Origin: Candidatus Faecisoma merdavium
GTDB lineage: Bacteria; Bacillota_I; Bacilli_A; RF39; UBA660
Assembly (NCBI GenBank): GCA_018716405.1
Contig: DVJX01000056.1
Span: 1-55,012, forward strand
DNA length: 55,012 nucleotides
Direction of reading: 5' to 3'
Shown here: one piece after another, positions 10,570-43,581 of the stretch
Numbering within the stretch: the stretch's first letter is position 1
Layout: each line of letters begins with the position of its first letter
The notes under the pieces: model-generated
Told to the model about the DNA's origin: nothing
The model's database searches: none
Seen by the model: only the letters and a program-made list of their open reading frames with translations
Position numbers and translations under genes: made by a program

Positions 10570-10640
10570 CTTACCACCTATATATATTATACACCCAAAC
10601 AATTATTTTATAAAGACATAAAATAGTATAGGTGATAAAA

Positions 10641-16091: not shown

Positions 16092-16434
16092 TGGTGGAGT
16101 CGAGGGGAATCGCACCCCTGTCCGAAAATATAAAGTTTAAAGTTCTACAAGTTTAGATAATTTGTTAATGTCCTAAATAATAATAAACTATCAAAATTTT
16201 ATTTAGTAATTTCTATATTAATTCATTAATAATCCTAGAAAAAAACTATTAATATAACTCACTAATCGAGCCTCTTTTATATTTCGTGAGTAAAAATATA
16301 AAGAAGCAGCCTTCTAATCTATTAAGCGAAAGCTAATTGATTTCTGTTTCCAGTTATTTTTAAATTTGAATGTATCGTATATCTTACGACTTGCCCTTTA
16401 AAAATTATTATTCCCGTCGAAACTAAGCGACCCC
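16092..16434 (-). ncRNA. ssrA: tmRNA (SsrA)
   Basis: 5' GGGGUCGCUUAGUUUCGACGGG and 3' GGACAGGGGUGCGAUUCCCCUCGACUCCACCA form a tRNA-like domain. An internal reading frame reads ...GGA AAC AGA AAU CAA UUA GCU UUC GCU UAA (tag ending GNRNQLAFA). Adjacent to smpB. Confidence 0.9.
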
Positions 16435-16913: not shown

Positions 16914-18996
16914 CTCTTACCACCTCGAAGTCAATTGTTCTTTTTTCTTTATCCGCAGCTACGACTCTTACTTTAACACTATCTCCTAATCTAAATCCTC
17001 GTTTATCTTTATTACCTCTTACTGTAAATGTAGTTTCATCGTAAGTATAATAATCCCCTTTAATACTATCTAATCTAACTAATCCTTCAATTAAATTAGG
17101 AAGTTCTACAAACATTCCAAAAGGCATAACTGAACTGATAATTCCTTCATATTCTTCACCAATATGATCCATCATATATTCTGCTTTTTTCATATCATCA
17201 ACTGCTCGTTCACATTCAATACTTCTTCTTTCCATACCAGATGTATGTTCGGCTACAAAAGGTAACTCCCTTTCATAAAAGTTAATTGTTTCATTATTTA
17301 TATTATTATCAAATATATAAGTATGTAGTAATCTATGCACTGTTGTATCTGGATATCTTCTAATAGGAGACGTAAAGTGAGTATAACATTTACTAGCGAT
17401 ACCAAAATGTCCTATATTATTTGTATCATATATAGCTTTTTGCATACTTCTTAAAAGTAAAGCTGATAGTAAATGAAATTCTTTTTTATCTTTTAATTGA
17501 CCCAATATATTTTGCATAGTTTTGGGAGTTAATTTATGTAAATCTTCTTTTACTTTATAACCTAAAATATTTAAAAATCTCATAAAATTATTAATTTTTT
17601 CTTCATTAGGTTCACCATGAATACGATAGATAAAAGGTAATTCCATATAATAAATGTGAGTAGCTACTGTTTCGTTGGCAGCTATCATAAAGTCTTCAAT
17701 TAATTTTTCTCCTTCTCCTCGATATCTTAAAGTGACATCAATGGCTTTTCCTTTATCATCAACTATTATTTTAGATTCATCAATATCAAAATCTATATAA
17801 CCTCTATTTTCTTTATTTTTACGTAAGATATGAGCAAGTTCTAACATCAATCTTAATTTATCTTCATATTCTTCGTATCCTTCTGGTACTATATTTTCTT
17901 CTAATATTTTATTAACATTTTTATATGTCATTTGTTTTCTAGATCTAATAACAGTTTGTAAAATATCATAATCTACAACATTACCATTTTTATCTATTTG
18001 CATAATACAAGATAAAGCTAGTCTATCAACATTAGGATTTAATGAACAAATACCATTAGATAATTTATGAGGTAACATTGGTATTACTCTATCAGCTAAA
18101 TAAACACTAGTTCCTCGATCAAATGCTTCACTATCTAATGCTGTATTAGGTCTAACATAATAACTTACATCAGCAATATGAACTCCTAATTTATAATTAT
18201 CCCCAATTTTCTCAATTGATATTGCATCATCAATATCTTTAGTATCATCGCCATCGATAGTAAATATCATTTCATCTCTTAAATCAGTTCTTCCAATTAA
18301 ATCTTTTTCTAATACTTCATCAGGTAAATTATCTACTTCTTTCATTACCTCATCACTAAAAGTATCAGGAATACCCATTTCATTAGTAATAGATAGTATA
18401 TCTACACCTGGATCATTCTTGTGACCTAATATTTTAATAACTTCACCTTTATAATTATTATCTTTTAATTTATTAGTTATTTTTACTAATACTTTATGAC
18501 CAGGCATAGCACCCATAGTTTTATCTAATTTAATAGTTATTTTTACTCTTTCATCATCTAAATCTACATAAGGAACATTTTTATTAAAATATACTTCTCC
18601 TACCATTTGTTTAAATTTACGATCAACTATTTTAACTATTCTACCTTCTAAATCAATACCTTTTGGTGAAGTGATTTCTACTACTACTCTATCACCATGA
18701 ATTGCCCCGTTCATGTTAGTTGGTGCGACAAAAACATCATCATCGCCATCAATATCAACAAATCCATAACCTTTTTTATTAGCTATCATTGTACCTAATT
18801 TTAAATGACTATTAGTAAATAATAAATAATTATTTTTTTTAGTTCTATATATTTTCAAACTATCTTCCATTTGATTTAATACTTTTAATAGTTGCTTTAG
18901 TTCATCTACACTATTAAAACCTAATCCATCATTAATTTCAGTAACTGATAAAGCTTTGTCACTATTTTTTAATAATTCTATAATTTTTTCTTCCAT
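16888..18996 (-). CDS. rnr: Ribonuclease R
   Basis: Cold-shock-like N-terminal domains, an RNB catalytic domain (DDAISIE, HFTSPIRRYPD) and a C-terminal S1 domain. Confidence 0.95.
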   Translation of the reverse strand: MEEKIIELLKNSDKALSVTEINDGLGFNSVDELKQLLKVLNQMEDSLKIYRTKKNNYLLFTNSHLKLGTMIANKKGYGFVDIDGDDDVFVAPTNMNGAIHGDRVVVEITSPKGIDLEGRIVKIVDRKFKQMVGEVYFNKNVPYVDLDDERVKITIKLDKTMGAMPGHKVLVKITNKLKDNNYKGEVIKILGHKNDPGVDILSITNEMGIPDTFSDEVMKEVDNLPDEVLEKDLIGRTDLRDEMIFTIDGDDTKDIDDAISIEKIGDNYKLGVHIADVSYYVRPNTALDSEAFDRGTSVYLADRVIPMLPHKLSNGICSLNPNVDRLALSCIMQIDKNGNVVDYDILQTVIRSRKQMTYKNVNKILEENIVPEGYEEYEDKLRLMLELAHILRKNKENRGYIDFDIDESKIIVDDKGKAIDVTLRYRGEGEKLIEDFMIAANETVATHIYYMELPFIYRIHGEPNEEKINNFMRFLNILGYKVKEDLHKLTPKTMQNILGQLKDKKEFHLLSALLLRSMQKAIYDTNNIGHFGIASKCYTHFTSPIRRYPDTTVHRLLHTYIFDNNINNETINFYERELPFVAEHTSGMERRSIECERAVDDMKKAEYMMDHIGEEYEGIISSVMPFGMFVELPNLIEGLVRLDSIKGDYYTYDETTFTVRGNKDKRGFRLGDSVKVRVVAADKEKRTIDFEVVRDGDTKQES

Positions 18997-19005
18997 AAAA
19001 TCCTC

Positions 19006-19557
19006 CTAAAAATTATCAATTAAATATCTAATTAATAATTTTTTATTTTTGTATTCAAATATGAAACTTAATATAAATAATACATTGCCAAATAAAGTAA
19101 TAATAATATCTTTCATAGTGTCATATACACCGGTAGCTTTCCTTTGCATGTCACCATTAAAGAGATTATCAACCATAAATTCAAATATCTCCCATAACCC
19201 TGAAGTGGCTAAAGAAAATATAAAAATAAACAAGCATATAAATATTAAATTGTCAAATTTTTTAAATTTTTTTAGTATCAATATCGCTAATAAGCTTGAT
19301 AAAAATCCCCATATAAAATGTGAAAAATTGTCATACCAATAAATAGTTTTATAAAAATGTAATTGACATCCTAAAAATAATGATATAAAACTAAATATTA
19401 GATATAAAAAAGTAATAATAGGTTTTAGTTTTAAAATAAAAGGAATTATAACAACTAAACTAAATAATAATATTGTTATATCTTTATTTATAAATGTAAA
19501 TATAACTGAAATAAAACAAAATACAAAAGAAATTAATATATTTATTTTATTCAACAT
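19006..19557 (-). CDS. Polytopic membrane protein, unknown function
   Basis: About five hydrophobic helices. Overlaps the rmuC end by 11 nt. Confidence 0.5.
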   Translation of the reverse strand: MLNKINILISFVFCFISVIFTFINKDITILLFSLVVIIPFILKLKPIITFLYLIFSFISLFLGCQLHFYKTIYWYDNFSHFIWGFLSSLLAILILKKFKKFDNLIFICLFIFIFSLATSGLWEIFEFMVDNLFNGDMQRKATGVYDTMKDIIITLFGNVLFILSFIFEYKNKKLLIRYLIDNF

Positions 19558-20608
19558 CTATTTTCTCCATTTCTACTTGATTAATTGAATTAAATCGTTT
19601 TGTTATCTTATCAGTAGTAGTATGTATATCTTTAACATCTTTACTTACTGTCTCAATACTTCGATATAATTTATCCCATCTTTCTTTATATCTATTAAAT
19701 TCATTACTTAATAATTTTAATTCATTATGTATTACAGTTGTATATTTGTCTCTTTCCATATTTTTAATTATTACTTGAATTGTAGTTAAGGTACTAATTA
19801 AAGTTGTTGGACTAGTAATCCAAACTCTTTTTTTATAAGCATATTCAATTATATCAGAATGATGGGCGTTAACTTCAGCAAAAATTGCTTCAGCCGGTAA
19901 AAATAAAATTGCTTGATCAGATGTAACATTATCAATTATATATTTACTAGCTATAGCATCAATATGTTTTTTCATATCTATTCTAAATAATTTTTCTGCT
20001 TGCTGTCTAATACTTATTTCATTTTTTCTATCCACCATTATTTGATAATGCTCTAAAGGAAATTTTGAATCTATAGCAATTGTCCCTAATGGAGATGGTG
20101 CAAATAATACACAATCAGCTATTGTATCATTATTGAATTTGTATTGCATTTGATATATTTTATCATTATCACCGAATATATTATACATTATATTTTTTAA
20201 ATTAACTTCACCAAATATTCCCCTTGTTTTTTTATCAGTTAAAATACTTTGTAAAGATATAATATCACTAGATAAATTATCTATTTTCTTTTGTGCTTCA
20301 TCAATTTTAGATAATCTTTCTAAAACATTTGTAAATGTTTTATTTGTTTTTTCAAAATTTTCATCTAATCTTTCATTAACTTTATTGTTAATTAATGTTA
20401 ATTTATTATCTAATTTATCATTTAATTTATCAAAATCATTAGTTAAGTCCCTGCTAAAAGATGATTTAAATTCACTAACTTCTTTTACTACATTTGTTTC
20501 TAACTTTCCTAATCGTTCAGTTATATTTGATTCATTTATATTTTTTGACAAGGATAAAATACAAACCATTAATATTATTATAAGTAAAATAATTATTATA
20601 TATTCCAT
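19547..20608 (-). CDS. rmuC: DNA recombination protein RmuC
   Basis: N-terminal TM, long coiled coil, and a C-terminal RmuC nuclease-like region (CVLFAPSPLGTIAIDSKFP...LFLPAEAIF). Confidence 0.9.
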   Translation of the reverse strand: MEYIIIILLIIILMVCILSLSKNINESNITERLGKLETNVVKEVSEFKSSFSRDLTNDFDKLNDKLDNKLTLINNKVNERLDENFEKTNKTFTNVLERLSKIDEAQKKIDNLSSDIISLQSILTDKKTRGIFGEVNLKNIMYNIFGDNDKIYQMQYKFNNDTIADCVLFAPSPLGTIAIDSKFPLEHYQIMVDRKNEISIRQQAEKLFRIDMKKHIDAIASKYIIDNVTSDQAILFLPAEAIFAEVNAHHSDIIEYAYKKRVWITSPTTLISTLTTIQVIIKNMERDKYTTVIHNELKLLSNEFNRYKERWDKLYRSIETVSKDVKDIHTTTDKITKRFNSINQVEMEKIDVE

Positions 20609-20641
20609 ACAATCACCATTTTAATTATATCATATTTTTAT

Positions 20642-20671
20642 AAAAAAAAAGCCTTATATTAATTATAAGAC
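20642..20671 (-). terminator. Terminator after the rhodanese gene
   Basis: CUUAUA-auuaa-UAUAAG hairpin followed by U9 on the minus strand. Confidence 0.5.
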
Positions 20672-20959
20672 CTATTTTTCTAATAACCATCCTTCATAGC
20701 CTTTAATAACATTATATACTTTATATCCTTTTGTTGCTAAAATATTACAAACTTTTAAACTGTTTTTTCCATATTGACAATATATGTAATATTCTTCATT
20801 TTTATTTAAATATTTTTCTGGATCTTTTAATAATAATATATAAGGTATATTTATTGCTCCATTTATATGGTTATCATTGTATTTTTCAATACTTCTAATG
20901 TCAATAATGTTAATATTGTTTTTACTCAATAATTCTTTTATTGAAACATTTAATACCAT
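20672..20959 (-). CDS. Single-domain rhodanese-like sulfurtransferase
   Basis: 95 aa. Active-site loop YCQYGKNS and typical IIDIRS...HINGAINIP. Confidence 0.85.
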   Translation of the reverse strand: MVLNVSIKELLSKNNINIIDIRSIEKYNDNHINGAINIPYILLLKDPEKYLNKNEEYYIYCQYGKNSLKVCNILATKGYKVYNVIKGYEGWLLEK

Positions 20960-21014
20960 ATAACCACCCTAATACATTATATGTATTAAGGAATAATTAA
21001 TAAAGGGAATTAAA

Positions 21015-23141
21015 CTAGTCTTCGTCGTTGAAGAAGTCATCAAAGAATTGATCATCAGTAACACCATTAATAACTTTACTCTCTTCTTCTTTTAATTCTA
21101 TCTTTGGTTCAATATTTTTTGAAGTATCATTTTTTGTAATAATTTCTTCTGGTTTACTATCTTTAATCTTAACTTCATTATTTTGTTTAATAACTGGTTC
21201 ATTCTTTGGTTGTTGTTTATTCTCTTTTTTGTCTTTTAATTGTTCTTGTTTTTCTTGTTCTTCTAATTCAGCAATCTTAGCATCAATTCTTTTAACTAAA
21301 GAATCTATGTCAAAAGAATCATTTTTTTCTATATTAGAAGATGGTTTTGAATTAAAAGAACCCATAGACATTGATGAATTCATAGGGTTAAACGAATTCA
21401 TCATGTCATTTAGTTTTGACTCTCTTTTTTTATCGACAAAAGATTTTAAATCAAACAACTTAATTTCTTGTTTCTCACGCTGTGGATAAGTTGCTTTGGG
21501 ATAAGATTTTCCCCATCCACCTTCTTTTTGAATTTTCCAATCTGGTACAACTTTTGTCTTAAATGGCATTGATCTAATTCTTAAAACAATAATTGTATTT
21601 TCTGGTAGTCTTTGTAAGTCACTAACAGTTACTAAAGGTGTGCTGGCTGTCTTATCTTTTTCTTTTGATTTTACTTCACCACATAATTTACTAATTTCTT
21701 CAAGTGACGCTAATTCACTACTGATAAGATATACTATATTACCACAGTTACCTTTTATCGTTTCACCATTTTCTTTGCCATATACTTGATATAATTGTGC
21801 AAAGTTTTGAATAATAAATGTAAATCTAATATTTCTGCTTCGTGCAGCTGTAACCATTGTAGTAACATCTTTTAAAGGTGGCATATTAGCAAATTCATCT
21901 AATATGAAATTAGTTTTAAAAGGTAACTTTCCACCAGATTCTTGAGCTACATCAATTAATGTTTCATAACATTGTTTAATAAATATTGTAACTAAAGAAT
22001 GATATGTTTTCTTTTCATCTTGAATAACTAAGAAAACAGCTGTTTTCTTTCTACCAATGTCTTTCAAATCAAAATCACTATGGCTTAACATTTCAGATAA
22101 ATTTTCTCTCGATGAAAATAATTTAATTTTTTGTTTAAAAACAGATAATATACTACTTTTAGTATCACTAGGAGCCATAATAGTTGATGAAACATTAATA
22201 TAGGCTGGACTAGCTTTATCTTTATAATTAAAATATTCTTTTATATAAGTAGTATTTCCTATTTTTTCTTCTCCTACAGTAGTCATCAAATTAATTGTAT
22301 TTAAATTGATTTCTTCTTCTTTTGCATCTTCAAACAAAGCTAAGGCCAACCCTGTAAAATAATCAGCTGAAGTCTTTTCCCAGAACGGGTCTTGACTTTG
22401 GGCCTTATCATCATAAAGAATGTTCATAGCTAAATCATCTAATAACTCATTTGCTTTGTCTTTATTACCACTTTTATACAATTGATAAGGTAATCCTAAT
22501 GGATTCCATGCACTACCTTTTTGAGGATCACGAAAATTAAGTAAAACTATGTTATAACCTTTTTCTCTTAACATTTCAGCATTATTTTCGTATATTTCAC
22601 CCTTAGGGTCGGTAATAATCATTGATTCGCCTTTTTTAGCTAAAATTCTAACCATTGGCTGAACCATAGTTTGTGTTTTACCTGCACCAGTAGAACCTAA
22701 TATAAGATTATGATACTCACCGGAATCAACCCAAATTTCTTTACCATTATTTATTAAAGGAATTCCTGCATACTCACTTGTTTCTTGACCAGGTAAAACC
22801 TTATTAATATTTTTTTCTTTCTTAAATTCTTTTTCAGTTTCCCATCTAGAATATCCTTTTTCTTCTTTAACACCAGTACTGAATCCAATACCTTTTTCTC
22901 TTTCAAAGAAATATGAAGATACACTAGTCATAATAATTATTAAAATAACTATATATCCCACAATAGTAGGAACAATATATTCACCTGAAAATGCTGGAAA
23001 AGGATTAAACCCATGGAATGTTCCTTCATTAGCAAAACTTGAAATATTCAGTACAGCTAATGCAACAAAATAAAGTAATACTATAGCAAAAATAACAAAT
23101 ATAAAATAATCTTTGCCAGAAGCTTTAAATTTCAATTTCAT
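21015..23141 (-). CDS. Type IV coupling protein (VirD4/TraG family)
   Basis: Two N-terminal TMs, Walker A GSTGAGKTQ, Walker B FILDEFANMP. Long low-complexity tail ending DDQFFDDFFNDED. Start moved to MKLKF (SD GAGGTGA). Confidence 0.85.
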   Translation of the reverse strand: MKLKFKASGKDYFIFVIFAIVLLYFVALAVLNISSFANEGTFHGFNPFPAFSGEYIVPTIVGYIVILIIIMTSVSSYFFEREKGIGFSTGVKEEKGYSRWETEKEFKKEKNINKVLPGQETSEYAGIPLINNGKEIWVDSGEYHNLILGSTGAGKTQTMVQPMVRILAKKGESMIITDPKGEIYENNAEMLREKGYNIVLLNFRDPQKGSAWNPLGLPYQLYKSGNKDKANELLDDLAMNILYDDKAQSQDPFWEKTSADYFTGLALALFEDAKEEEINLNTINLMTTVGEEKIGNTTYIKEYFNYKDKASPAYINVSSTIMAPSDTKSSILSVFKQKIKLFSSRENLSEMLSHSDFDLKDIGRKKTAVFLVIQDEKKTYHSLVTIFIKQCYETLIDVAQESGGKLPFKTNFILDEFANMPPLKDVTTMVTAARSRNIRFTFIIQNFAQLYQVYGKENGETIKGNCGNIVYLISSELASLEEISKLCGEVKSKEKDKTASTPLVTVSDLQRLPENTIIVLRIRSMPFKTKVVPDWKIQKEGGWGKSYPKATYPQREKQEIKLFDLKSFVDKKRESKLNDMMNSFNPMNSSMSMGSFNSKPSSNIEKNDSFDIDSLVKRIDAKIAELEEQEKQEQLKDKKENKQQPKNEPVIKQNNEVKIKDSKPEEIITKNDTSKNIEPKIELKEEESKVINGVTDDQFFDDFFNDED

Positions 23142-23180
23142 AAAATTCACCTCGTCATTATAAGTATAACATATTATTAA

Positions 23181-23855
23181 TTAAATTTCATTATTTTTTT
23201 TACTTATAAATATAATTATAGATAACGTAAGCATAATTGTAATAAGTATTCCAAATATAATAGAAATCATTAAAATATTTTCTTTAATATACATCCCAAT
23301 CTTTTCCAAAAGTGTATATTCTTTTACATTTCCAAATTTAATATATATTCTTTTATTAGATGCATTATCGTCATCTATATTCCAAGTATAAACATCATTA
23401 TCTACAACATCAGCATTACTTTCTATTACAACATGATTACTTTTTATGTTGACTTGAACACTATCAACTTTAGAATATTCAAAAACCATACATTTAAAAC
23501 CTTCACTAGTTGATATAATATATTCTCCATTTTGTTCAATAAAACTAAATGCGTCAAAACATGTATTTATATATGTCGCATATCTAAATTGATCAAAATT
23601 ATAATTATAATTATAATTAGCAATGAAATTAGAACCTTTTTCATAAAATTCTGAATTATATAAATTTTGATACTTATTATCAAAATTTGCATAGGCTTTA
23701 AATTTTTTTAATCCATTAATTTGGTTTTCCAATTTTTTATCTAAAGAAATATTAATATTTTCAATTAAACTATCATCTTTAAATTCTAAATCATATTTAA
23801 CTTGACATCCTGATAAAACAAAAATAGTTAAAAGTAAAAGTATTATTTTTTTCAA
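23181..23855 (-). CDS. Lipoprotein with a C-terminal TM anchor (T4SS accessory)
   Basis: Lipobox LSGC after a TTG-start signal peptide MKKIILLLLTIFV. Hydrophobic C-terminus. Overlaps the hydrolase stop. Confidence 0.55.
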   Translation of the reverse strand: MKKIILLLLTIFVLSGCQVKYDLEFKDDSLIENINISLDKKLENQINGLKKFKAYANFDNKYQNLYNSEFYEKGSNFIANYNYNYNFDQFRYATYINTCFDAFSFIEQNGEYIISTSEGFKCMVFEYSKVDSVQVNIKSNHVVIESNADVVDNDVYTWNIDDDNASNKRIYIKFGNVKEYTLLEKIGMYIKENILMISIIFGILITIMLTLSIIIFISKKNNEI

Positions 23856-23856
23856 A

Positions 23857-26175
23857 TCACTCACCCTTACCTAAAACATATACATAACCATTAAATGAAT
23901 ACCTGCTTCCATCAGTATAATTTTTTATACTCTCAAATGTATATGTATTAACACTCATATTAACATAGTCCCAGGTTGCGGTTCCACCAGCACCTTTTGA
24001 ATTCCAGCCCTCTGAAATTGTGATAGTATGATTTTCATAATCAACACTTTCCACTACAGCAACATGACCACATCGTGGATCACAAACATCACTTCCGCCG
24101 CTCCAAGAAACAAAAGCTCCTGGCATAGGTTGGGTGTTATCGGTTGATTTTTGGAAAATGCTTAGATTTTGGTGATCAAACCAACCCTCACCATTTGCGC
24201 TTGTACTAGCTATAGCATTTAAAGCAGTTATTTTTGTTGCGTCATCCATATTTGAATAATAAATCATTTCTAACATTCTACCTCTTGCATACCACACACA
24301 TTGTCCTAAATAAGGATGATCATAATCGTATATTTGTGACATATCAAATTGTTGTCCTGCAATCATAACAATTCCCATATCTTTATATTGTTTTGATCTT
24401 TCAAGTAACTCTGAAAGATTTTGTGGTGGCGCAATAGAAAATGAAAACATTCCACTAACTGTATTCATATTTGCTATTTCTACACCTTCTGAATAGAAGT
24501 ATCCTAAAATTTCTTCATAAGAAGAACCATTATCAGCCATTTCATATGAGGCGACTTGACTCATTCCAAGACCATGACCGCCTCCAATCATGTAATAATA
24601 TTTTTCAGATAAATAAACTCTATGTTTTTCATTGTTTGGTACTTTTGTGTATTCTACATATCTTTTGCCATCTTCTTCACCATACACACAACTAGTATCG
24701 TTATAACAATATGAATCATAAAAAGCAGTTATTAATTCATCATTATAAATTAAAACTAATCCAGCCGTTGCATTAGCTGCTTCAGTCGCATAATCAGCAA
24801 TATCAGGATTAAAAACCTGCTTAGAATCGCTGCTTTCAATAGATGTGCTACAATTATTAGTTTCTTTTAATACCAACGTTCTAGCAGCAATTGCTTGTGC
24901 TTTATATGCCTCAATATTTTGTCCTGCCCAAGCCTCACCTGTAATAACACCTGCAACATAAGTTTCTAAATCATAAGTTCCTATAAGTTTTCCATTAGCG
25001 TCAACAACAGTAACACCTGGACAAGTTGCATATACTTTTCCATATTGTTTTGGAGTTTCTAATTCATCAACAAACGCAGCTCTTGAAAAAATCTCTCTTA
25101 CAGTTTCCTCAACTTTTTTATCAACTTCATCTGAATACTTATTATCATAATAATATTGTCGTATAAAAACATATTTTAAATATTTTTCATAATGTTCTAA
25201 ATCTACTTTATATTTTTCTTCATGATCACTTGGACAACTATATTTAACACCAGAAAAATTTAGTAAACCCAGACTACTACACATATGATTGCCATTAGAA
25301 TCTAAATATTCTTCACCATTTTTATAACAGCATTTACTAATCATATTATTAGCGAGTAATAAAACTTTCTGTTGACTTTTCTTAAAATCTATATAATTAG
25401 ATGAAGCAATATTGTCTAAATTACTATCTTCATCTAAATCATTATCATCTTCCGCATCTGTTGTGAAAGGACTAGAATATGTAAGTGTTGCTGTTATTAA
25501 TGTGGTATTTAAAGAAACACTATATTGATCTTTGTAATATATATCGGCTGCTTCTATAAATTTATAAAAATTATTCTTTTCTTTTTCATCACATTCTGCG
25601 TCAGAACACCATCCTCTAAAGGTTAAAAAATTACCTAATTTTTCACCGAAAGAGGAAATTGCACCGGTTACACTTCCTATAAACTCTTTAATATAAAGTA
25701 AAGGTGATATAATTATAGCAATAATAATTATTAATATTATTACAGTAAAACATCCTGCACATCCAATACCACCTAAACCTGTAAATAAAAGTAATTTTGT
25801 CCCATTTTTAACTTCCTTATCTCCACTACCAGTAACATCATCTTCTTTTTTGTTTTTACCAAAAAAATTAAAAGGAGAACTTTTTTTAGCAACATTATTA
25901 GCACTATCTAAAGCTTTTTGTCCAAGTTTTGTATTAGATAATTTTTCTACTGCTGCTCCACCAGCTGGGCCAAAATATGCATTTGCAGCAGTTTTTGCAC
26001 CTTCTTTTATTAATTTTTTTTGAGCATTATCTTTAACTTGATTAGGATTAAATCCCTTATTTAAGGTATTAGATGGTTTATTTAATTTACTTCCTTGATT
26101 ATCTTGTTTCGCTGAAAAATTCCCATTGCTAGGAATTTTATCTTTTGTATCATTATTCATAACCATCACCACCAA
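23857..26175 (-). CDS. Membrane-anchored peptidoglycan hydrolase: SpoIID/LytB-like domain plus C-terminal CHAP domain
   Basis: Central TM (FTVIILIIIIAIIISPLL). SpoIID-like segment ETYVAGVITGEAWAGQNIEAYKAQAIAARTLVL...GHGLGMSQ. CHAP-like GQCVWYARGR...GHVAVVESV. The exact start among TTG and ATG codons at 26160-26175 is uncertain. Confidence 0.8.
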   Translation of the reverse strand: MVVMVMNNDTKDKIPSNGNFSAKQDNQGSKLNKPSNTLNKGFNPNQVKDNAQKKLIKEGAKTAANAYFGPAGGAAVEKLSNTKLGQKALDSANNVAKKSSPFNFFGKNKKEDDVTGSGDKEVKNGTKLLLFTGLGGIGCAGCFTVIILIIIIAIIISPLLYIKEFIGSVTGAISSFGEKLGNFLTFRGWCSDAECDEKEKNNFYKFIEAADIYYKDQYSVSLNTTLITATLTYSSPFTTDAEDDNDLDEDSNLDNIASSNYIDFKKSQQKVLLLANNMISKCCYKNGEEYLDSNGNHMCSSLGLLNFSGVKYSCPSDHEEKYKVDLEHYEKYLKYVFIRQYYYDNKYSDEVDKKVEETVREIFSRAAFVDELETPKQYGKVYATCPGVTVVDANGKLIGTYDLETYVAGVITGEAWAGQNIEAYKAQAIAARTLVLKETNNCSTSIESSDSKQVFNPDIADYATEAANATAGLVLIYNDELITAFYDSYCYNDTSCVYGEEDGKRYVEYTKVPNNEKHRVYLSEKYYYMIGGGHGLGMSQVASYEMADNGSSYEEILGYFYSEGVEIANMNTVSGMFSFSIAPPQNLSELLERSKQYKDMGIVMIAGQQFDMSQIYDYDHPYLGQCVWYARGRMLEMIYYSNMDDATKITALNAIASTSANGEGWFDHQNLSIFQKSTDNTQPMPGAFVSWSGGSDVCDPRCGHVAVVESVDYENHTITISEGWNSKGAGGTATWDYVNMSVNTYTFESIKNYTDGSRYSFNGYVYVLGKGE

Positions 26176-26180
26176 TTATT

Positions 26181-27965
26181 TTATAATCCGCCGCCACTTC
26201 CAAATGAATCTAGTTCTTGTTCAGTAGCTATAATATTTATTCGCATTCTTCTACTACCACAAACGAATAAAGCTTCACCTTGATTGTATCTTTTTATACT
26301 TTCTTTTTCATTATCATTTAAATCTATTAATTTAGCTAAGTCTTCAACCGCTTGTTTTTTTAATCCCATAACTAAATAATAAGAAGCATTATCAAATATT
26401 GCTTTACCTTGAGTTATAATAGAAGGTTCACTGAAATCGGAAGGCTGTTGAGTTATAATAATTGTTCCAGTATTATATTTTCTTGCTCTTCTTTGAATTT
26501 GCCCTAAGAAATCAGCCCCTAAAACATTATTCCCAGACATTAAAACATGTGCTTCATCAACAGTTAAAACTGTATTAATACTTGTATCTAATGTTAAACT
26601 CCAAGCATATTTTAAAATATTGAAAAATAAAGCGTTTCTAATATTCCTATCACTATTCATTATTTCTCGTATGTTAAAAACTATAAAATTACTTTGAGGT
26701 TGAATTGTTGTATGACCATCAAAATAATATTTCAACTCTTTTACTAATGGCCTTATTTTTAGTTCTAATTTTTCTAAAATATCTTTTTCATGTGTTTTTT
26801 CAGGAATTGATAATAATTTACCTCTGATTGTTGCGTAAACATCTTTAAAAGTAGGATAATCTTTTGACGTTAGTTTAGAAAAATCTGTTGTAAAATCTAT
26901 TCCAAATCTTCTATAAGTGTCTTGAACTATTTCACTAAACATTGTTATAACATCTTCTTCTGTACTAGGATCATAATATTTTATAAAAGCTTTTAATGAT
27001 TGTAAAGTTCTTGTAAGAACTGTATACCCTAAACCTTGTTTTATTTCTTCTTCATCTGCATCCATAATTACTTCAAGTGGATTGACCATACCGAATTCTC
27101 CACCTTTACCCAAATCGATGAAATCTCCTCCATATAATTTAGCCATATCTTCAAATTCACCTTCAGGGTCAATTATTACTAGCTGAATATCGTTTCTTAT
27201 ATGCGTTCTAAGCAATAATTTAGCTGCAGTTGATTTACCGGAACCAGATGTTCCTAATATTATAACATTAGCATTATTTCTATTATGTTCTTTCTTTATT
27301 TGATAGAGAAATTGATTAAACAAAATAACTCCACCTGAAAAATCAACCCCTAATAAACATGATAATCCAGGATCTTTTATACTATCAAAGATAAAAGGAA
27401 ACATAGCAGCAATTGTAGGAGCAGGAATAGGAGTTCCTATTCTATTTTCAATTTCTTGATTTGGATAAATTGGTAAAATAGATTTTAGTACTCTTTCTTG
27501 TTCAAATCTTAAAGGAAAGGCCTTCATTTCCATCGCTTCAATATAACTTTTTACTTGTAATTTTTTTGCAGTTAATTCTTCTTCTGAATTAGCAGTTACC
27601 ATAATATGTAATTGAAAATCATATATTTTAGACTGTGTACTTACCAACTGTGAAATAAAATATTCTAAAGATTCATAATCTTGTCTAATTCTTTCTTGAA
27701 TTGTTTTATCACTTTCTTCTTGATATCTCATTTTCAAGTCTGCTATTTCTTTATTTAACATTCTTTGAATAACACTAAAAGGTAGCGGAATATGTTTAAT
27801 TACTACTTTAACTCCTGACATACTAGTTAAATTAGCCAAATAACCAGGAGAAATAAATTTTGGATAAGAAACAACTGTCAAAATAGTAGCGTATTTATCA
27901 CTTATTATAAAATCACTTGATCTAAACTCCAATCCTTTTGGAGCAATTTGACTTTTTATATCCAT
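26181..27965 (-). CDS. VirB4-type T4SS ATPase (TraE/TcpF/ConE-like), C-terminal ~three quarters
   Basis: Walker A GTSGSGKST, Walker B LTVDEAH. IAPKGLEF...YATILTVVSYP is typical of the VirB4 middle domain. Confidence 0.85.
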   Translation of the reverse strand: MDIKSQIAPKGLEFRSSDFIISDKYATILTVVSYPKFISPGYLANLTSMSGVKVVIKHIPLPFSVIQRMLNKEIADLKMRYQEESDKTIQERIRQDYESLEYFISQLVSTQSKIYDFQLHIMVTANSEEELTAKKLQVKSYIEAMEMKAFPLRFEQERVLKSILPIYPNQEIENRIGTPIPAPTIAAMFPFIFDSIKDPGLSCLLGVDFSGGVILFNQFLYQIKKEHNRNNANVIILGTSGSGKSTAAKLLLRTHIRNDIQLVIIDPEGEFEDMAKLYGGDFIDLGKGGEFGMVNPLEVIMDADEEEIKQGLGYTVLTRTLQSLKAFIKYYDPSTEEDVITMFSEIVQDTYRRFGIDFTTDFSKLTSKDYPTFKDVYATIRGKLLSIPEKTHEKDILEKLELKIRPLVKELKYYFDGHTTIQPQSNFIVFNIREIMNSDRNIRNALFFNILKYAWSLTLDTSINTVLTVDEAHVLMSGNNVLGADFLGQIQRRARKYNTGTIIITQQPSDFSEPSIITQGKAIFDNASYYLVMGLKKQAVEDLAKLIDLNDNEKESIKRYNQGEALFVCGSRRMRINIIATEQELDSFGSGGGL

Positions 27966-28510
27966 TATCCTAACACCGTCCCAAATGTAGTTGTAACACC
28001 ACCATTTAAAAAGTTATCCAAAATCATTCTTAAATCATCATTAGTTGTCTGATAAGCAACCAATCCAGCCCCTGCAAAAGTATTTATTAAATTCCTTATT
28101 CTTTTTTGAATTATATCGTCTTTTTTTTCTCTAAATAATAAGAAATATTCTGTATCAACTACGTTATTATTCATAAACATATTACCCTTATTAATATCTT
28201 CCATTATTAGTTTTCTTTTAGCTGGGTTACTAATATTGTTATATAAAAGTTCCAACTGTGAAAGATATACAGTTATATCAACTGGCCTATCTGCAGCAAT
28301 TATCCAAAATTCATAATCAATAGTGTTATATACAATTCTTAAATTTGAAATAATACTATCCTGTGTTTGTTGATCAAGAATAAAAATGTTTCTTGGCATT
28401 ATTTTAACACCTGTTACTTTTAATCCATTGTCTAATATGATAGACCCATTTTTAATTTCTCTAACTGGAATATCATCATTAGTAAATTTACTTCTCTTTG
28501 CCTTCGCCAT
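27965..28510 (-). CDS. 181-aa protein resembling the N-terminal domain of long Gram-positive VirB4 proteins
   Basis: DIPVREIKNGSIILDNGLKVTGVKIMPRNIFILDQQTQDSIISNLRIVYNTI...RPVDITVYL has the pattern I recall from VirB4 N-termini. Its stop overlaps the VirB4 ATG (TAATG). Confidence 0.5.
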   Translation of the reverse strand: MAKAKRSKFTNDDIPVREIKNGSIILDNGLKVTGVKIMPRNIFILDQQTQDSIISNLRIVYNTIDYEFWIIAADRPVDITVYLSQLELLYNNISNPAKRKLIMEDINKGNMFMNNNVVDTEYFLLFREKKDDIIQKRIRNLINTFAGAGLVAYQTTNDDLRMILDNFLNGGVTTTFGTVLG

Positions 28511-28805
28511 GTGGAAAACACCAACCCTTCCATTTAAACTTTCTTGGATTCATATAAAAACCTATTGCAGAAGCAATTAAAGTTCTCATATTATAATAAT
28601 TTGGAACCGGCATTACTAAAAATCCTGTTATTAATGCTGGCAATAAAGCTATAATAGCGTAAACTATTTCACCTGATGGTAAAAACTTTAAAAGTAATAA
28701 AGTTATAGCTATACCAATGCCAAACATAATCAAGTCAAATTTGGTAAAAAGGCCAAAAATAAGCATTGACTTTTTCGTGTTTGCCGGTATTAAAAAATTA
28801 TCCAT
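28488..28805 (-). CDS. Two-TM PrgI/TcpE/VirB3-like protein
   Basis: 105 aa with two hydrophobic helices. Its position directly upstream of VirB4 matches Gram-positive T4SS operons. Confidence 0.45.
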   Translation of the reverse strand: MDNFLIPANTKKSMLIFGLFTKFDLIMFGIGIAITLLLLKFLPSGEIVYAIIALLPALITGFLVMPVPNYYNMRTLIASAIGFYMNPRKFKWKGWCFPHGEGKEK

Positions 28806-28872
28806 CTAATATCACACCCTTTTTTAATTATTGTTTGTTTTTCTGTTTACATTTTGTTATTTTTTTGTTTTG

Positions 28873-30723
28873 TTATTGTTTTTTTTGTCGTTTAAGCTTT
28901 TTTTTACTTGTGTTTGGATTTCTTACGCCAGGGACAGGATCACCTTTTCCATTTGGACCATGTTTTGGAGTTGTCGATGATTGATTAGATTGAGACATTA
29001 ATTCGGGAGGACCAGATATTGAAGCTCCCCCAGTTTTTTCAAATGCTTCAATAGCATCTTCTATCTTAGCATATTCTGGCATTTGTTTTTTCATTTCATT
29101 GTGTAAACTATTACGATATTCATATTGTCCTTTTGCTTTACCATAATTTTCATTTGCCTTTTTTAGAGATTCATATGCAGTACTTGCTTCAATAGAATCA
29201 GCTCCATAATTAGTAACAGCAGCTTGGTAATCACTTTCTACTTTTTTAACATAATTTTCCCATGCATACATTTTTCCTTTAGCAGCTTTTACATTATTAT
29301 AAGAATCCAAATATGCACCTTCAAATATTAACTCTGGAGCTTGGCCAGAATACTTGCTACCTAATTCTAATTGTTCTTCTAACTTACGCTGCCTATCTAA
29401 CCCTTCATATCGTTGGCGTGCAGTATCTCTTTTTTCTTTAATCTCACGTCTCATTTTTCTATCAGCAGTATCCCATATAGAAGTTTTACCATCACCACCA
29501 GTAAGTGGTATATTCTTCCAATTTCGTTTTACGCCTGCCATAAATCCATTACCATGTATCCAACTATCAGCACCACCAATTGCTAAATTAGCAGCTTTTC
29601 CAGCAATAGGCACTTCACTCATTTTTTTCAATGGATTTAAAGTGAACTTGCCATCCATCTTCATTCCTGTTAGATCCTCAATCAATTTTGGCAATTGTTT
29701 TGCAAACAATAACGCTCCTAAAATAATAAATACTTTTACAAAAGGATTAACTTCTCCCATTTCTTGACCTGTAACAGCATCAACAAAACGTAAGTCTATT
29801 ATCTGAGTAATTACAAAAATTGCAAAATATATAGCCAAAAGTCTTATAAACAAATCCAAATATGTATTTATACAAGTCTTAACCCACTTATCAAAAACAT
29901 CTTTTCCTTTTTTAGGATCTATTCTTGATATAATAGGAACTGGTGCTAACATTTTTAAAAATCCCAATTTGACACTTCTAATGGCAATATCAAAACAAAA
30001 AACAATCAATAACAAAATCATTACTACTCCTGTTATAGTTGAAAATATTGTTGTATATGTCATTACATAATTACCATCAGAATCTCTCATAATTGCAATT
30101 CCTGAATCCAAGTATACACTAATACTACCGGTAAAATGAGCATATTCTAAATTTTTTCTTAAAGATGCTGTATCTTCTATGGAACTAATATTTTCAATAC
30201 ATGAAAAATCAGCATTATTGCCTGTAAAATTATCAGAATCACATTCAGGATATCTATCAACATCAAAATAATAAAACGCCTTAAATGTTTCATATGCCAT
30301 CGTATTACCTGGGTCTGCAACTACCGTTGTATTAACCCCATTAGTTGAAAACAATTTACCAATAATATTATCTTTTAAAATAATACCTTGTAATTCCATA
30401 GCATAAGTAAAAATAAAAGGGGTTAAAATTAATAAAACTAAAGTCATAATAATGTTACTAATCAATTTTCCAAAACCTTTATTCTTGTCTGTGAAAGCAT
30501 CTGGATCAACTATATAAGTTAAAATTGAAAATGATACTTTAAATAACATAAAAACGCCTAACAAAGTATAAATTCTATTTGAAAATAACGTGAAAACATC
30601 TTCACTAAATATTGAAGTTTCTGCTATATTAACCAAAAGATTATATACAGTTGGTATAAACTTATAAACTATAGAGTCTAACCAAAATAATAAAGTTCGA
30701 AAAATCGTTTCCAACCAACCCAT
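28873..30723 (-). CDS. Polytopic membrane protein, candidate VirB6/TcpH/ConG analogue, with a long soluble C-terminal tail
   Basis: At least six hydrophobic helices in the first ~400 aa with an extracytoplasmic Cys-containing loop. The C-terminal ~200 aa are coiled or low-complexity and end KKKLKRQKKQ. Confidence 0.5.
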   Translation of the reverse strand: MGWLETIFRTLLFWLDSIVYKFIPTVYNLLVNIAETSIFSEDVFTLFSNRIYTLLGVFMLFKVSFSILTYIVDPDAFTDKNKGFGKLISNIIMTLVLLILTPFIFTYAMELQGIILKDNIIGKLFSTNGVNTTVVADPGNTMAYETFKAFYYFDVDRYPECDSDNFTGNNADFSCIENISSIEDTASLRKNLEYAHFTGSISVYLDSGIAIMRDSDGNYVMTYTTIFSTITGVVMILLLIVFCFDIAIRSVKLGFLKMLAPVPIISRIDPKKGKDVFDKWVKTCINTYLDLFIRLLAIYFAIFVITQIIDLRFVDAVTGQEMGEVNPFVKVFIILGALLFAKQLPKLIEDLTGMKMDGKFTLNPLKKMSEVPIAGKAANLAIGGADSWIHGNGFMAGVKRNWKNIPLTGGDGKTSIWDTADRKMRREIKEKRDTARQRYEGLDRQRKLEEQLELGSKYSGQAPELIFEGAYLDSYNNVKAAKGKMYAWENYVKKVESDYQAAVTNYGADSIEASTAYESLKKANENYGKAKGQYEYRNSLHNEMKKQMPEYAKIEDAIEAFEKTGGASISGPPELMSQSNQSSTTPKHGPNGKGDPVPGVRNPNTSKKKLKRQKKQ

Positions 30724-30756
30724 AAAAAGTCAACTCCCTTTACTTAACTAATAATA

Positions 30757-30790
30757 ATTATAACATAAAAAAAAAAGATTATAAATAGTT
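30757..30790 (-). promoter_or_regulatory. Candidate promoter of the T4SS operon
   Basis: Extended -10 TGTTATAAT lies ~30 nt upstream of the SD AGGGAG and ATG. The -35 (TTTATA) is weak. Confidence 0.35.
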
Positions 30791-30792
30791 TT

Positions 30793-31824
30793 TTAATCTT
30801 TTTTTAATTGTTGTAAAATAATACCCATTCCTACAAAAATACTTATTACACTTATCAAATTTCCTATGAATGGAATTATTGATAAAACACTTATTATACT
30901 TATTCCTATTAACCCAATTAAATAAATATTGTTATCTTTCTTTATTATGTTTTTCCACACTAAATACCCTATTAAATATGAAGTAAATAAACTAGATAAC
31001 CAAATACAAACTATATAGAAAATTAATAACAAGATTGCTAAAGACGTTCCAAAAACTAGAGTTAATAATAAGATAAAAATAATAGGTATTAAAATAACAG
31101 ATAAAGTCCCAAAACCAAATAAAGAAAAGAAATTTAAAATCGTTAATTTTTCATTTTTATGTTCAATTCGTTTAAATAATTTTGGCGTTATAAATGCAAA
31201 GAATAAAAATATTAATAACAAGCTACCATAATTTGTAATAAATTGCCATACCTTTTCTTGAAAAGTAATATCTTTATACATCTTTTCTGTTACATTAAGT
31301 TCATTAACATTACCTTTATTTTCTATTACAGCATCCTCATTATAAGATAATACACCATCAATATTTCCATTAACTTTAATATCACTAGATTTAATATCTA
31401 CATTTCCATTTATATTACCATTTATGGTAACATTCATAGCATATATTTTAACATCTCTTTTAATTGTCCCATCTATAATAACTTCGCTTCCAACAATAAC
31501 TAAATCACGATCTACAACAACATTACTATCAAACTTTATAACATTACCAATTATAATACCATCATTAGACACATTTCCATTAACATTAATGTTATTACCA
31601 ATTAAAAATAAATAATCACTTATACCATTAAAATTAATATTATTTCCAATCATAGCATCAATACCGTGAACATTATTTTTAGATTCTATATTATTACCTA
31701 TAATAATAGAACTACCATCAACATTTTTTTCTTCTTCAATCGTTTCATTTATATTAAAATTAAGACATGAAGCATTAATAATAGGAAACATAAATAAAAC
31801 TAACATAAAAATTATTTTCTTCAT
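30793..31824 (-). CDS. Secreted bactofilin-like (polymer-forming, beta-helical repeat) domain fused to a ~5-TM C-terminal anchor
   Basis: Signal peptide, then repeated IGNNI.. / V.GN(V/I) motifs over ~170 aa, then a hydrophobic C-terminal half. Confidence 0.6.
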   Translation of the reverse strand: MKKIIFMLVLFMFPIINASCLNFNINETIEEEKNVDGSSIIIGNNIESKNNVHGIDAMIGNNINFNGISDYLFLIGNNINVNGNVSNDGIIIGNVIKFDSNVVVDRDLVIVGSEVIIDGTIKRDVKIYAMNVTINGNINGNVDIKSSDIKVNGNIDGVLSYNEDAVIENKGNVNELNVTEKMYKDITFQEKVWQFITNYGSLLLIFLFFAFITPKLFKRIEHKNEKLTILNFFSLFGFGTLSVILIPIIFILLLTLVFGTSLAILLLIFYIVCIWLSSLFTSYLIGYLVWKNIIKKDNNIYLIGLIGISIISVLSIIPFIGNLISVISIFVGMGIILQQLKKD

Positions 31825-31915
31825 TTTATCACCATTATCATAATATCATTTTATGATAAAAATGTCAAAAAATTATAAATTTTAAAAAAAAATACATAAT
31901 ACTAATGGTGATATT

Positions 31916-42352: not shown

Positions 42353-42401
42353 AAACATTTCCTTTCTTGTTCGAACAATGCCATTTTATAAGAATAATCA
42401 A

Positions 42402-43127: not shown

Positions 43128-43157
43128 ATTAAAAATTTTTCCTCCTTATATGTAAAA

Positions 43158-43181
43158 GCACGAGATAGTAAAATCTCGTGC
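43158..43181 (-). terminator. Leader hairpin or weak terminator just upstream of the TA operon SD
   Basis: GCACGAGAU-uuuacua-UCUCGUGC followed by UUUU on the minus strand. Confidence 0.35.
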
Positions 43182-43194
43182 TAAATTTATTTTT

Positions 43195-43549: not shown

Positions 43550-43581
43550 TCACTAAAACGTAAAATTTGTAGTCTAATTTG

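Follow-up and report, generated by a model that had tools for sequence, protein, structure and literature searches.

Background

Is a conjugation-type type IV secretion system (T4SS) that lies among housekeeping genes the remnant of a mobile element, or does it belong to the chromosome and, if so, what does it transport? The question is raised by a cluster of seven genes in a 55,012-nucleotide (nt) stretch of DNA, referred to here as the window (contig DVJX01000056.1, positions 1 to 55,012, of assembly GCA_018716405.1), from Candidatus Faecisoma merdavium. To our knowledge, the T4SSs of Gram-positive bacteria have been encountered almost exclusively as parts of plasmids and of integrative and conjugative elements (ICEs). 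An original prediction, drawn from the sequence of the window alone, presented the cluster as a stand-alone minimal T4SS operon and offered two explanations: the last intact module of a decayed ICE, or a chromosomally domesticated T4SS. Comparison with related genomes supports the latter. The cluster is a core feature of the RF39 lineage, chromosomally fixed and vertically inherited, and not a mobile element.

The exact 594-amino acid (aa) VirB4 protein encoded by the cluster carries the NCBI name Candidatus Faecisoma merdavium. The genus is equivalent to CAG-878 of the Genome Taxonomy Database (GTDB), family CAG-822, order RF39, and its type genome measures 1.3 Mb with a GC content of 24.6% (PMC8035907). 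Genomes of RF39 are small, auxotrophic and reduced (PMC12306168). The window has a GC content of 25.3%, uses the standard genetic code and bears its genes mainly on the minus strand. No report linking RF39 (or RFN20) to a T4SS was found in the literature searched, the coverage of which was incomplete. What appears to be new here is a core-genome, pilus-linked and relaxase-less T4SS in an order of the Bacillota; the conjugative T4SS components themselves are of a known kind.

Results and discussion

A T4SS locus fixed in the RF39 chromosome

Sixty blocks of the assembly collection index the exact VirB4 protein of the window. The ten conspecific metagenome loci examined are identical in gene order, with every gene intact, as had been proposed for the open reading frames (ORFs) of the window. 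In a scan with one genome per GTDB species, relatives of VirB4 were detected in at least 421 species genomes. Among the best 80 of these, the larger, C-terminal product of the two VirB4 genes (VirB4C) is 78-94% identical to that of the window along its whole length. A combination of tblastn and ORF clustering, with a view limited to ±10 kb around each match, recovered a single arrangement in 80 of 80 species loci: VirB6, PrgI, the N-terminal VirB4 gene (VirB4N), VirB4C, a slot for hydrolase and lipoprotein genes, and VirD4. The VirB6 gene was located upstream of PrgI in 77 loci and a rhodanese gene after VirD4 in 51 species loci; wherever the contig of a species extends far enough, the series rhodanese, rmuC, DUF2238 and rnr comes next. 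The PrgI-like protein is 43-82% identical between species. The locus occupies the same site throughout, and the sequence around the cluster contains no att-like repeats, direct or inverted, beyond low-identity, AT-rich chance pairs.

Ratios of nonsynonymous to synonymous substitution rates (dN/dS), calculated between species by the Nei-Gojobori method, range from 0.03 to 0.73 over the seven ORFs and are lowest in VirB4 (Table 1, which also gives three neighbouring core genes). Over 43 species, the mean pairwise distance is 0.186 for VirB4C, smaller than the 0.268 for the neighbouring RmuC, and the two distance matrices are correlated (Mantel r = 0.725, a value that 0 of 2000 permutations reached). 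This divergence fits a long vertical co-inheritance of the locus with the chromosome. Frameshifted or absent orthologues in relatives had been named as the mark of simple decay, and the genes proved intact in all 80 species loci examined; together, the dN/dS, divergence and intact-gene results exclude simple decay and a recent ICE. Purifying selection equals in strength that on the neighbouring housekeeping genes, with VirB4 close to rmuC, and across the RF39 order this strong selection has preserved the locus where it stands in the chromosome.

Conservation is far from uniform along the operon. Within the species (loci L001 to L010), VirB6 is hypervariable in one extracytoplasmic loop and throughout its C-terminal half, with lengths of 616-647 aa, and the hydrolase varies over its whole length; the lipoprotein, too, is polymorphic. 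The proportion of synonymous differences (pS) is raised to about 0.2 in VirB6 and the hydrolase, while VirB4 is identical among these loci. Such a pattern suggests allelic exchange or diversifying selection acting on putative surface or recognition parts. Between species, the hydrolase slot is filled by SpoIID+CHAP, glucosaminidase+CHAP, NlpC/P60, or M23 with or without SpoIID (L014, L023, L033, L044, L049 and others). The slot is also often duplicated as hydrolase-lipoprotein pairs, in a pattern reminiscent of effector-immunity pairs.

A conjugation-type gene set with VirB4 in two genes

The seven co-directional ORFs of the minus strand span positions 21015-30723, and the coordinates and overlaps described previously were confirmed (PrgI/VirB4N, 23 nt; VirB4N/VirB4C, 1 nt; hydrolase/lipoprotein, 8 nt). 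Profile searches likewise agreed with the proposed set of VirB6, PrgI/VirB3, VirB4, SpoIID+CHAP hydrolase, lipoprotein and VirD4, with PrgI identified at a sub-threshold level only. VirD4 is recognized most firmly, by PF02534 (E 9e-56) and by the NCBIfam model NF045973 conju_CD1115 (300 bits, cutoff 250). VirB4C matches the structure 4AG5 in the Protein Data Bank (PDB; E 4e-54). Of the accessory proteins that define the class, the hydrolase is clear, VirB6 passes the Pfam cutoff of PF19597 TrbL_4 narrowly (E 2e-6, 27.9 bits, cutoff 27), and the PrgI-like ORF falls under the Pfam cutoff of PF12666 (E 8e-4), its position being equal to that of the annotated 'PrgI family mobile element protein' in plasmid pBMB68. 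On the matches of VirB4, VirD4, VirB6 and the hydrolase, the cluster is classed as a monoderm conjugation-type (MPF_FATA-like) T4SS gene set. None of the cluster products matched a VirB8/TcpC-like scaffold in Pfam, NCBIfam or the PDB, the fold of the lipoprotein being left aside by an unusable model (see below).

VirB4 had been described as apparently split. Two genes indeed encode it, but there is no lesion: the stop of VirB4N and the start of VirB4C are joined by TAATG, with an overlap of one base, and the two-gene arrangement recurs in 81 of 81 loci and in pBMB68. Matches to the NCBIfam models NF045975 and NF045971 span both gene products. VirB4N aligns to positions 98-276 of NF045975 (E 4e-13) and bears a precomputed PF26593 TraC-like annotation, while VirB4C covers positions 295-891 of the same profile.

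The start of the hydrolase is placed five codons later by gene callers, giving 767 aa. In the lipoprotein family, the lipobox residues G19-C20 (Cys20 being the lipobox cysteine) are invariant or nearly so in 56 homologues and LPAM_1 is matched by 13 members; beyond LPAM_1, no domain match was obtained, and a family profile search against PDB sequences gave only noise. A single-sequence AlphaFold (AF2) model of the lipoprotein was unusable, with a predicted local distance difference test (pLDDT) score of 44.

The last ~14 residues of VirD4 (positions 21015-21060 of the window, with equivalents in L016-L094) follow the pattern [IV][TS]DDQFFDDFFxD[DE], which is invariant in 64 of 65 species and is preceded by a hypervariable, K/E-rich linker of ~150 residues. 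The DDQFFDDFF motif was found in no other ORF of the examined loci, nor in the VirD4 of pBMB68. This tail looks like a candidate docking motif for a conserved partner.

The cluster as the 3' half of a larger operon

The description of the cluster as stand-alone and minimal did not hold. In about 60 of the 80 species loci, a conserved Tad/Flp-like block lies upstream of VirB6. Its members are an RcpC/CpaB-like protein, a TadA/CpaF ATPase, polytopic proteins of 300 aa and of 260 aa, a pilin-like protein of 64-86 aa, two pseudopilin-like proteins of ~145 aa, a TadZ-like protein of ~330 aa and one to five hairpin proteins of ~120 aa; a variable membrane-anchored protein of 300-470 aa is often included. 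In loci centred on TadA, the first genes of the operon are seen to lie upstream of this block and to encode a polytopic protein of ~520 aa, a secreted protein of ~216 aa and DUF5411; housekeeping genes are found beyond them. TadA is identified by PF00437 and by the NCBI name 'Flp pilus assembly complex ATPase component TadA', and the neighbouring gene has a precomputed PF16976 RcpC annotation. The 300-aa, 260-aa and 64-86-aa proteins gave no significant Pfam match, and the N-terminus of the pilin-like protein, AAG/EANMTV, is a degenerate motif.

Neither the window nor its nearest relative (L016) has a Tad block beside VirB6. In Faecisoma, the block is found intact at a second locus, in the order pflB-pflA / 529 aa - 216 aa - DUF5411 - RcpC - TadA - 300 aa - 260 aa - pilin - 147 aa - 142 aa - 315 aa - 118 aa / hpf - secA. 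The placement of both Faecisoma loci in one genome rests on the binning of metagenome-assembled genomes and on NCBI names. A further locus, L103, has the complete operon preceded by a DUF2179 gene (71% identical to the copy in the window) and a 371-aa protein gene.

As judged from gene order, the ancestral state is a single operon of about 25 kb, with the Tad/hairpin module at its 5' end and VirB6 to VirD4 at its 3' end. Its predicted order begins with the 520-aa polytopic protein, the 216-aa secreted protein, DUF5411, RcpC/CpaB, TadA, TadB, TadC and the small pilin, and ends with two pseudopilin-like proteins, the TadZ-like protein, one to five hairpin proteins, VirB6, PrgI/VirB3, VirB4N, VirB4C, hydrolase, lipoprotein and VirD4. 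On the simplest reading, the 5' half would have been translocated in the Faecisoma lineage, leaving VirB6 to VirD4 behind the old upstream neighbours, DUF2179 and a 343-aa protein. The stand-alone appearance of the T4SS is thus an artefact of viewing one locus only.

Two variants of this organization were observed. In L011-L013 (positions 3487-4770) and L021, of the Acholeplasma sp. CAG:878 group, a second, short VirD4-like gene (411 aa) stands upstream of the pseudopilin genes; it takes the place of the TadA-C block and has as its neighbour either a 576-aa protein that bears a pilin N-methylation motif or an Ig-like protein of 700 aa. In L098, a metagenome contig from a strain in which the second Faecisoma locus differs, a relaxase gene of the Mob_Pre (MOBV) type together with 424-aa and 153-aa ORFs (positions 1-2992) substitutes for the scpA/scpB-side sequence next to pflB, about 9 kb upstream of TadA. 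The segment is a candidate integrative mobilizable element that the T4SS might serve.

The small hairpin proteins

The hairpin proteins encoded upstream of VirB6 in relatives have two hydrophobic helices, a charged loop that is conserved (KAVMAQKEDEIKK) and cysteines at the C-terminal end. No hairpin gene is present in the window, and one copy resides at the second locus. Their commonest Pfam match is PF18895 T4SS_pilin, obtained for 38 of 61 members at E <= 0.1, with a best E of 4e-5 and all matches under the Pfam cutoff; only 8 of the 61 reach E < 0.001, and unrelated transmembrane families score alike. An AlphaFold model built from 65 homologues (pLDDT 72) predicts a hairpin of helix-loop-helix form, to which a short beta-hairpin is added at the N-terminus. 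No PDB match to this model was returned by Foldseek, and a search of the family profile against PDB sequences gave only noise. Small two-helix proteins occupy the equivalent position in pBMB68 and in a Mycoplasmatota plasmid.

Mobility genes in and around the cluster

As originally proposed, no relaxase, Rep or integrase is encoded in or beside the cluster. The window contains 52 ORFs of 90 aa or more. All but one were scanned against Pfam, the one left out (29354-29767, plus strand) being nested antisense within the VirB6 gene, and neither a relaxase nor a Rep was detected among the 51; there is no integrase adjacent to the cluster. The sole recombinase of the window, a large serine recombinase, belongs to a MazF/BREX defence island ~10 kb away, from which the cluster is separated by rbfA-infB-ylxR-nusA-rimP and five further genes. 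A link between this recombinase or its island and the T4SS was rejected on the ground of these intervening core genes.

The search for a relaxase was extended to the operon and flank proteins of relatives and was equally negative, the recurrent or odd flank proteins being housekeeping or structural. By tblastn, the MobP3 relaxase of pBMB68 matched neither the window nor any of the 102 further loci retrieved. Several proteins were considered as hidden relaxases and discarded: the 520-aa and 216-aa proteins that lead the operon (polytopic and secreted, respectively), family f30 (YfhO), the 700-aa ORF of L021 (x700; Ig-like domain), the 576-aa protein of L011 (pilin N-methylation motif) and other flank ORFs (Tex, TyrRS and acetate kinase).

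Relationship to mobile elements and known systems

When the library was clustered at 50% identity, the entire RF39 VirB4 clade formed a single cluster. Two rare clusters, at 44% and 41% identity, come closest to it, and the remainder, with Thomasclavelia, Solobacterium and Mycoplasmatota plasmid proteins among them, lie at or below 35%. The best of 2742 plasmid matches to VirB4 is 31% identical.

An instructive comparison is provided by pBMB68 of Bacillus thuringiensis (NZ_CP010581), a plasmid of the pXO2/pAW63 type. Its gene order is MobP3 relaxase, VirD4 (CD1115), a small ORF, TrbL, PrgI, a 227-aa ORF, a ~630-aa 'DUF87' VirB4 and an NlpC/P60 hydrolase; further ORFs follow, and then DUF5411, a SAF protein, an AAA ATPase and a T2SS/T4P-family ATPase. 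The 227-aa ORF is homologous to VirB4N of the window (E 1.7e-13). In common with RF39, the plasmid thus has the VirD4 family, a hairpin ORF, TrbL/VirB6, PrgI, a separate VirB4N, a VirB4 of ~600 aa and a hydrolase, as well as DUF5411, a SAF/RcpC protein, an AAA ATPase and a T2SS/T4P-family ATPase. Since pBMB68 possesses both a split VirB4 and an attached pilus-type ATPase module, these are traits of a T4SS class and not signs of damage. In contrast to RF39, pBMB68 has a MobP3 relaxase beside VirD4 and is typed as conjugative; the proteins of the two systems are only 28-33% identical, and the RF39 VirD4 is located at the 3' end and bears the DDQFFDDFF tail, whereas that of pBMB68 is without it. 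The closest plasmid relative (L096, positions 18486-26022 of CP074574.1) comes from a cold-seep Mycoplasmatota bacterium. Next to the same T4SS genes it encodes TadE-like proteins and Flp-type pilins of canonical form (G/SPSLEY, G/VIFEY), and it is typed as non-mobilizable in PLSDB, with no relaxase called.

The apparatus of the Mycoplasma ICEs (Mbov_0397 / CDS17 VirB4, CDS5 VirD4, CDS14 lipoprotein) supplies the best NCBIfam model for both RF39 VirB4 parts and is similarly minimal, with VirB3, VirB4, VirB6, VirD4 and a lipoprotein. The RF39 protein nevertheless fails the cutoff of that family, NF045975 (358 bits against 590), and is encoded as 181 + 594 aa where the Mycoplasma VirB4 is a single protein of ~890 aa. 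The Mycoplasma systems also reside on mobile ICEs with a DDE recombinase, and lack both the hydrolase and a Tad module. The same component set as in RF39 is known from type IV-C, or minimal VirB1-B4-B6-D4, systems such as the Streptococcus suis 89K island and the Clostridioides difficile CTn clusters, and the CD1115 family to which the RF39 VirD4 belongs is named after a C. difficile protein. Those systems are strain-variable and lie on islands or conjugative transposons with integrases and relaxases, whereas the RF39 system is fixed, syntenic and pilus-linked. The RF39 locus differs from a self-transmissible element in having no relaxase encoded with it, no integration module and an invariant presence among strains and species.

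A further likeness is to a chromosomal system. The T4SS of Patescibacteria, including Saccharibacteria, is chromosomal, MPF_FATA-derived and widespread; it has no relaxase, possesses VirB2-like arrays, works with type IV pili and, in Saccharibacteria, is required for epibiotic growth (PMC12102498, PMC12857230). RF39 resembles it in the MPF_FATA-like VirB3, VirB4, VirB6, VirD4 and hydrolase, in lineage-wide chromosomal occurrence with no relaxase nearby, in the tandem small pilin-like genes, in a pilus partner of the type IV-filament kind and in the reduced genome of the host. It differs in that RF39 is a walled member of the Bacillota with sporulation-type genes, VirB4 is divided between two genes, the VirB2-like label is only suggestive, and the pilus module is Tad/Flp-like and part of the same operon. 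Common descent aside, the RF39 system has in common with the Patescibacteria T4SS its defining evolutionary features.

What is transported

The reading that we prefer, and rate at somewhat better than an even chance, is contact-dependent transfer of DNA or nucleoprotein by a core-genome, pilus-linked T4SS whose relaxase is not encoded alongside. A DNA or nucleoprotein substrate is favoured because the closest relatives of the system are conjugative, because the type IV coupling protein (T4CP), VirD4, has been retained and because transfer without a relaxase has precedents in pXO16 and Mycoplasma. The tip locus of pXO16 (B. thuringiensis) contains ATPases and a hydrolase, has no identified relaxase or oriT, and moves non-mobilizable plasmids and chromosomal loci; in Mycoplasma chromosomal transfer, too, DNA is moved without a recognized canonical relaxase and oriT (PMC9673590 and PMC12857230, respectively). 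The likeness to pXO16 is one of described composition, and pXO16, unlike the RF39 system, is plasmid-borne and self-transmissible.

In a simplified view, a Tad-like pilus would bring the cell against a partner cell and the hydrolase would open the peptidoglycan, upon which VirB6, VirB3 and the two-part VirB4 would form and power a membrane channel. VirD4 would recruit the substrate by way of its invariant acidic-aromatic C-terminal tail. This substrate, DNA or nucleoprotein, would be encoded away from the machine: it may be an integrative mobilizable element that bears its own relaxase and is served in trans, or chromosomal DNA moved without a canonical relaxase, as in Mycoplasma chromosomal transfer and with pXO16. 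The Mob_Pre segment seen in one strain is the kind of element that the T4SS could serve in trans.

Several considerations weigh against DNA transfer. The case for it is built on ancestry and on the T4CP, and neither a substrate nor an oriT nor a relaxase has been identified. T4CPs recruit protein effectors as well. The slow, order-wide evolution of the system is unusual for a machine devoted purely to gene transfer, and fits better a function critical to lifestyle, as in Patescibacteria. The pilus on which cell contact would depend carries labels (Tad-B, Tad-C, Tad-Z and pilin) that derive from size, order and sequence features rather than from significant profile matches, and the VirB2-like assignment of the hairpin proteins is weak, a lead and not a finding. 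The within-species proportion of nonsynonymous differences (pN) of VirB4C is zero by construction, as the conspecific loci were fetched by exact VirB4 identity.

The foremost alternative, which we consider possible but rather unlikely, is that RF39, after the manner of Patescibacteria, has co-opted a Tad pilus and T4SS for (near-)obligate cell-cell interaction, perhaps for attachment to the host or a second bacterium and the exchange of protein or nutrients with it, and not for conjugation. Chromosomal, order-wide occurrence without a relaxase is what the Patescibacteria T4SS exhibits (PMC12102498, PMC12857230), and there is physical linkage to a pilus module. Evolution of VirB4 is slower than that of the neighbouring housekeeping genes, and the host lineage is genome-reduced (PMC12306168). 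An arms race with the envelope of a partner would fit the fast-evolving VirB6 loop and tail, hydrolase and lipoprotein, as well as the domain swaps of the hydrolase. The tandem of one to five hairpin genes upstream of VirB6 speaks for this alternative through the 38 of 61 members with a sub-threshold PF18895 match, but the T4SS_pilin score falls below E 0.001 in only 8 of the 61, with rival transmembrane families similar. Furthermore, an epibiont lifestyle of RF39 is unsupported, the peptidoglycan and sporulation-type genes of the window suggest a free cell cycle, no effectors were identified, and the closest sequence relatives of VirB4 are proteins of conjugative elements. Doubtful, in our estimation, is the more far-reaching proposal that a Tad-pilus/T4SS supermachine in the RF39 core genome serves obligate contact-dependent interaction and is a possible source type of the Patescibacteria T4SS; the latter is suggested because VirB2-like hairpin arrays occur here inside an MPF_FATA-like system.

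An apparatus for DNA uptake or release, resembling Helicobacter pylori ComB, archaeal Ced/Ted or the gonococcal genetic island, we regard as improbable. The absence of a relaxase in cis and the pilus module adjacent in relatives would be in keeping with such a role, and Tad pili do take part in the transformation of some Actinobacteria. VirB4C also has a weak match to the NCBIfam model CedD (E 1.5e-11), but at 43.7 bits it is far under the cutoff of 600. The conserved neighbour rmuC counts for this alternative, but the linkage may be plain synteny. ComB-type uptake systems are without VirD4, which in RF39 is present, conserved and furnished with an invariant tail, and gonococcal DNA secretion requires a relaxase.

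It is very improbable, and largely refuted, that the cluster was left over from a decayed ICE or belongs to an intact one with relaxase and integrase elsewhere on the element: conjugative ancestry, the large serine recombinase ~10 kb off (40547-42358) and GC and GC3 (GC at third codon positions) values slightly over those of the flanks are outweighed by the finding of intact genes at one chromosomal position throughout the 10 conspecific contigs and the 80 species, ATPase dN/dS values of 0.04-0.10, the lack of att-like repeats, the core genes (rbfA-infB-nusA-rimP and others) that part the recombinase/BREX island from the cluster, and a closest mobile-element VirB4 at most 31-35% identical.

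According to a 2025 review (PMC12857230), Patescibacteria are to date the sole monoderms known to have VirB2-type subunits and growth-linked T4SSs, and their system, chromosomal, growth-critical and possibly piliated, is the one exception among the T4SSs of Gram-positive bacteria. An RF39 T4SS that is order-wide, strongly selected and without a relaxase beside it would be a second, independent chromosomal case, found in bacteria that are common in the guts of humans and animals, and obligate interaction, if true, would be the first such case in the Bacillota. The system may offer a molecular handle on neighbour interaction and DNA exchange in uncultured auxotrophs and could aid their cultivation. 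Its invariant VirD4 tail, hypervariable VirB6 tail and swapped hydrolase domains are testable features, and the pilus module and two-gene VirB4 may now be regarded as native parts of one monoderm T4SS class.

Neighbouring genes and other features of the window

The claim that housekeeping genes flank the cluster stands, with an amendment. Beyond VirD4 lie rhodanese, rmuC, DUF2238, rnr, smpB and tmRNA; on the VirB6 side, the 343-aa membrane protein gene and a DUF2179 gene on the opposite strand intervene before rbfA, infB, ylxR, nusA and rimP. No terminator is predicted in the 55-nt gap between VirD4 and the rhodanese gene.

Table 1. Features of the T4SS cluster and its surroundings in the window, with between-species dN/dS
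Feature	Position	Strand	Match or context	dN/dS
Single-domain rhodanese, directly downstream of VirD4	20672..20959	-	PF00581	
VirD4 coupling protein, 711 aa from GTG / 708 aa from gene-caller ATG	21015..23150	-	PF02534, NF045973	about 0.10
VirD4 C-terminal peptide			TDDQFFDDFFNDED	
Lipoprotein with C-terminal transmembrane anchor, 227 aa	23181..23864	-	lipobox	0.45-0.73
Membrane-anchored peptidoglycan hydrolase, SpoIID + CHAP	23857..26175	-	PF08486, PF05257, TIGR02669	0.29-0.55
VirB4 ATPase, C-terminal part (VirB4C), 594 aa	26181..27965	-	PDB 4AG5; NF045975	0.036-0.046
VirB4 N-terminal domain as separate protein (VirB4N), 181 aa	27965..28510	-	NF045975	0.03-0.06
PrgI/VirB3-like small membrane protein, 105 aa	28488..28805	-	PF12666 PrgI, sub-threshold	0.07-0.125
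VirB6/TrbL-like polytopic channel protein, 616 aa, with long hydrophilic C-terminal tail	28873..30723	-	PF19597 TrbL_4	0.18-0.37
Promoter-like site TTTATA-17-TATAAT with TG (TGtTATAAT extended -10, weak -35)	30757..30785	-	69-nt gap before VirB6	
343-aa membrane protein with beta-helix-like repeat domain	30793..31824	-	neighbour of old operon 5' boundary	
rmuC			neighbouring gene	0.035-0.052
rnr			neighbouring gene	0.046-0.08
smpB			neighbouring gene	0.03-0.10

In L103, the products encoded ahead of the full operon are DUF2179 and the 371-aa protein, with which the 343-aa protein shares 40% identity; in L101 and L102, no homologue stands at that position. As it accompanies DUF2179 upstream of the whole operon in the former and is missing in the latter two, it was rejected as a T4SS component and is probably not a part of the machine. 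In one conspecific contig (L008, positions 4112-5845), an insertion sequence encoding a 577-aa DDE_Tnp_1 transposase lies between DUF2179 and the 343-aa gene, the T4SS genes being untouched.

Two further statements about the cluster were partly upheld. The extended -10 motif credited with being its own promoter does exist, but is indistinguishable from chance, as the window contains 97 promoter-like matches against 89 +/- 10.5 expected. A stronger promoter-like site, TTGACA-17-TATTAT with TG, is found at 31840-31868 ahead of the 343-aa gene, and no terminator is predicted between the two sites. Base composition is close to, but not identical with, that of the surroundings: GC is 28.7% in the cluster and 25.3% in the whole window, and GC3 amounts to 12-19% in the cluster genes (PrgI 25%, lipoprotein 9%) against 9-13% in core genes.

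The defence island occupies positions 40547-54984; it is likely to be an integrated element that has no connection with the T4SS. It comprises the large serine recombinase (40547-42358), a MazF toxin (42566-42964), a sigma-70 region-4 protein (43582-44067), the BREX genes BrxL (44696-46726), PglZ (46738-49281) and PglX (49293-53018), and an AAA_13 ATPase (52996-54984) that closes the island 28 bases short of the window edge. On the other side, a 347-aa ORF without a Pfam match (14990-16033) lies beside the tmRNA gene (16092-16434); ssrA is a common integration hotspot.

Peptidoglycan and sporulation-type genes occur in the window at 451-1632, 3775-5548, 9352-10602 and 11659-12258. Their products are a D-Ala-D-Ala carboxypeptidase, SpoIIIAH-like, GerM, PASTA+deacetylase and SpoVID-N+LysM proteins. 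By these genes the organism is evidently walled, though NCBI files the genome under Mycoplasmatota, and is possibly spore-forming.

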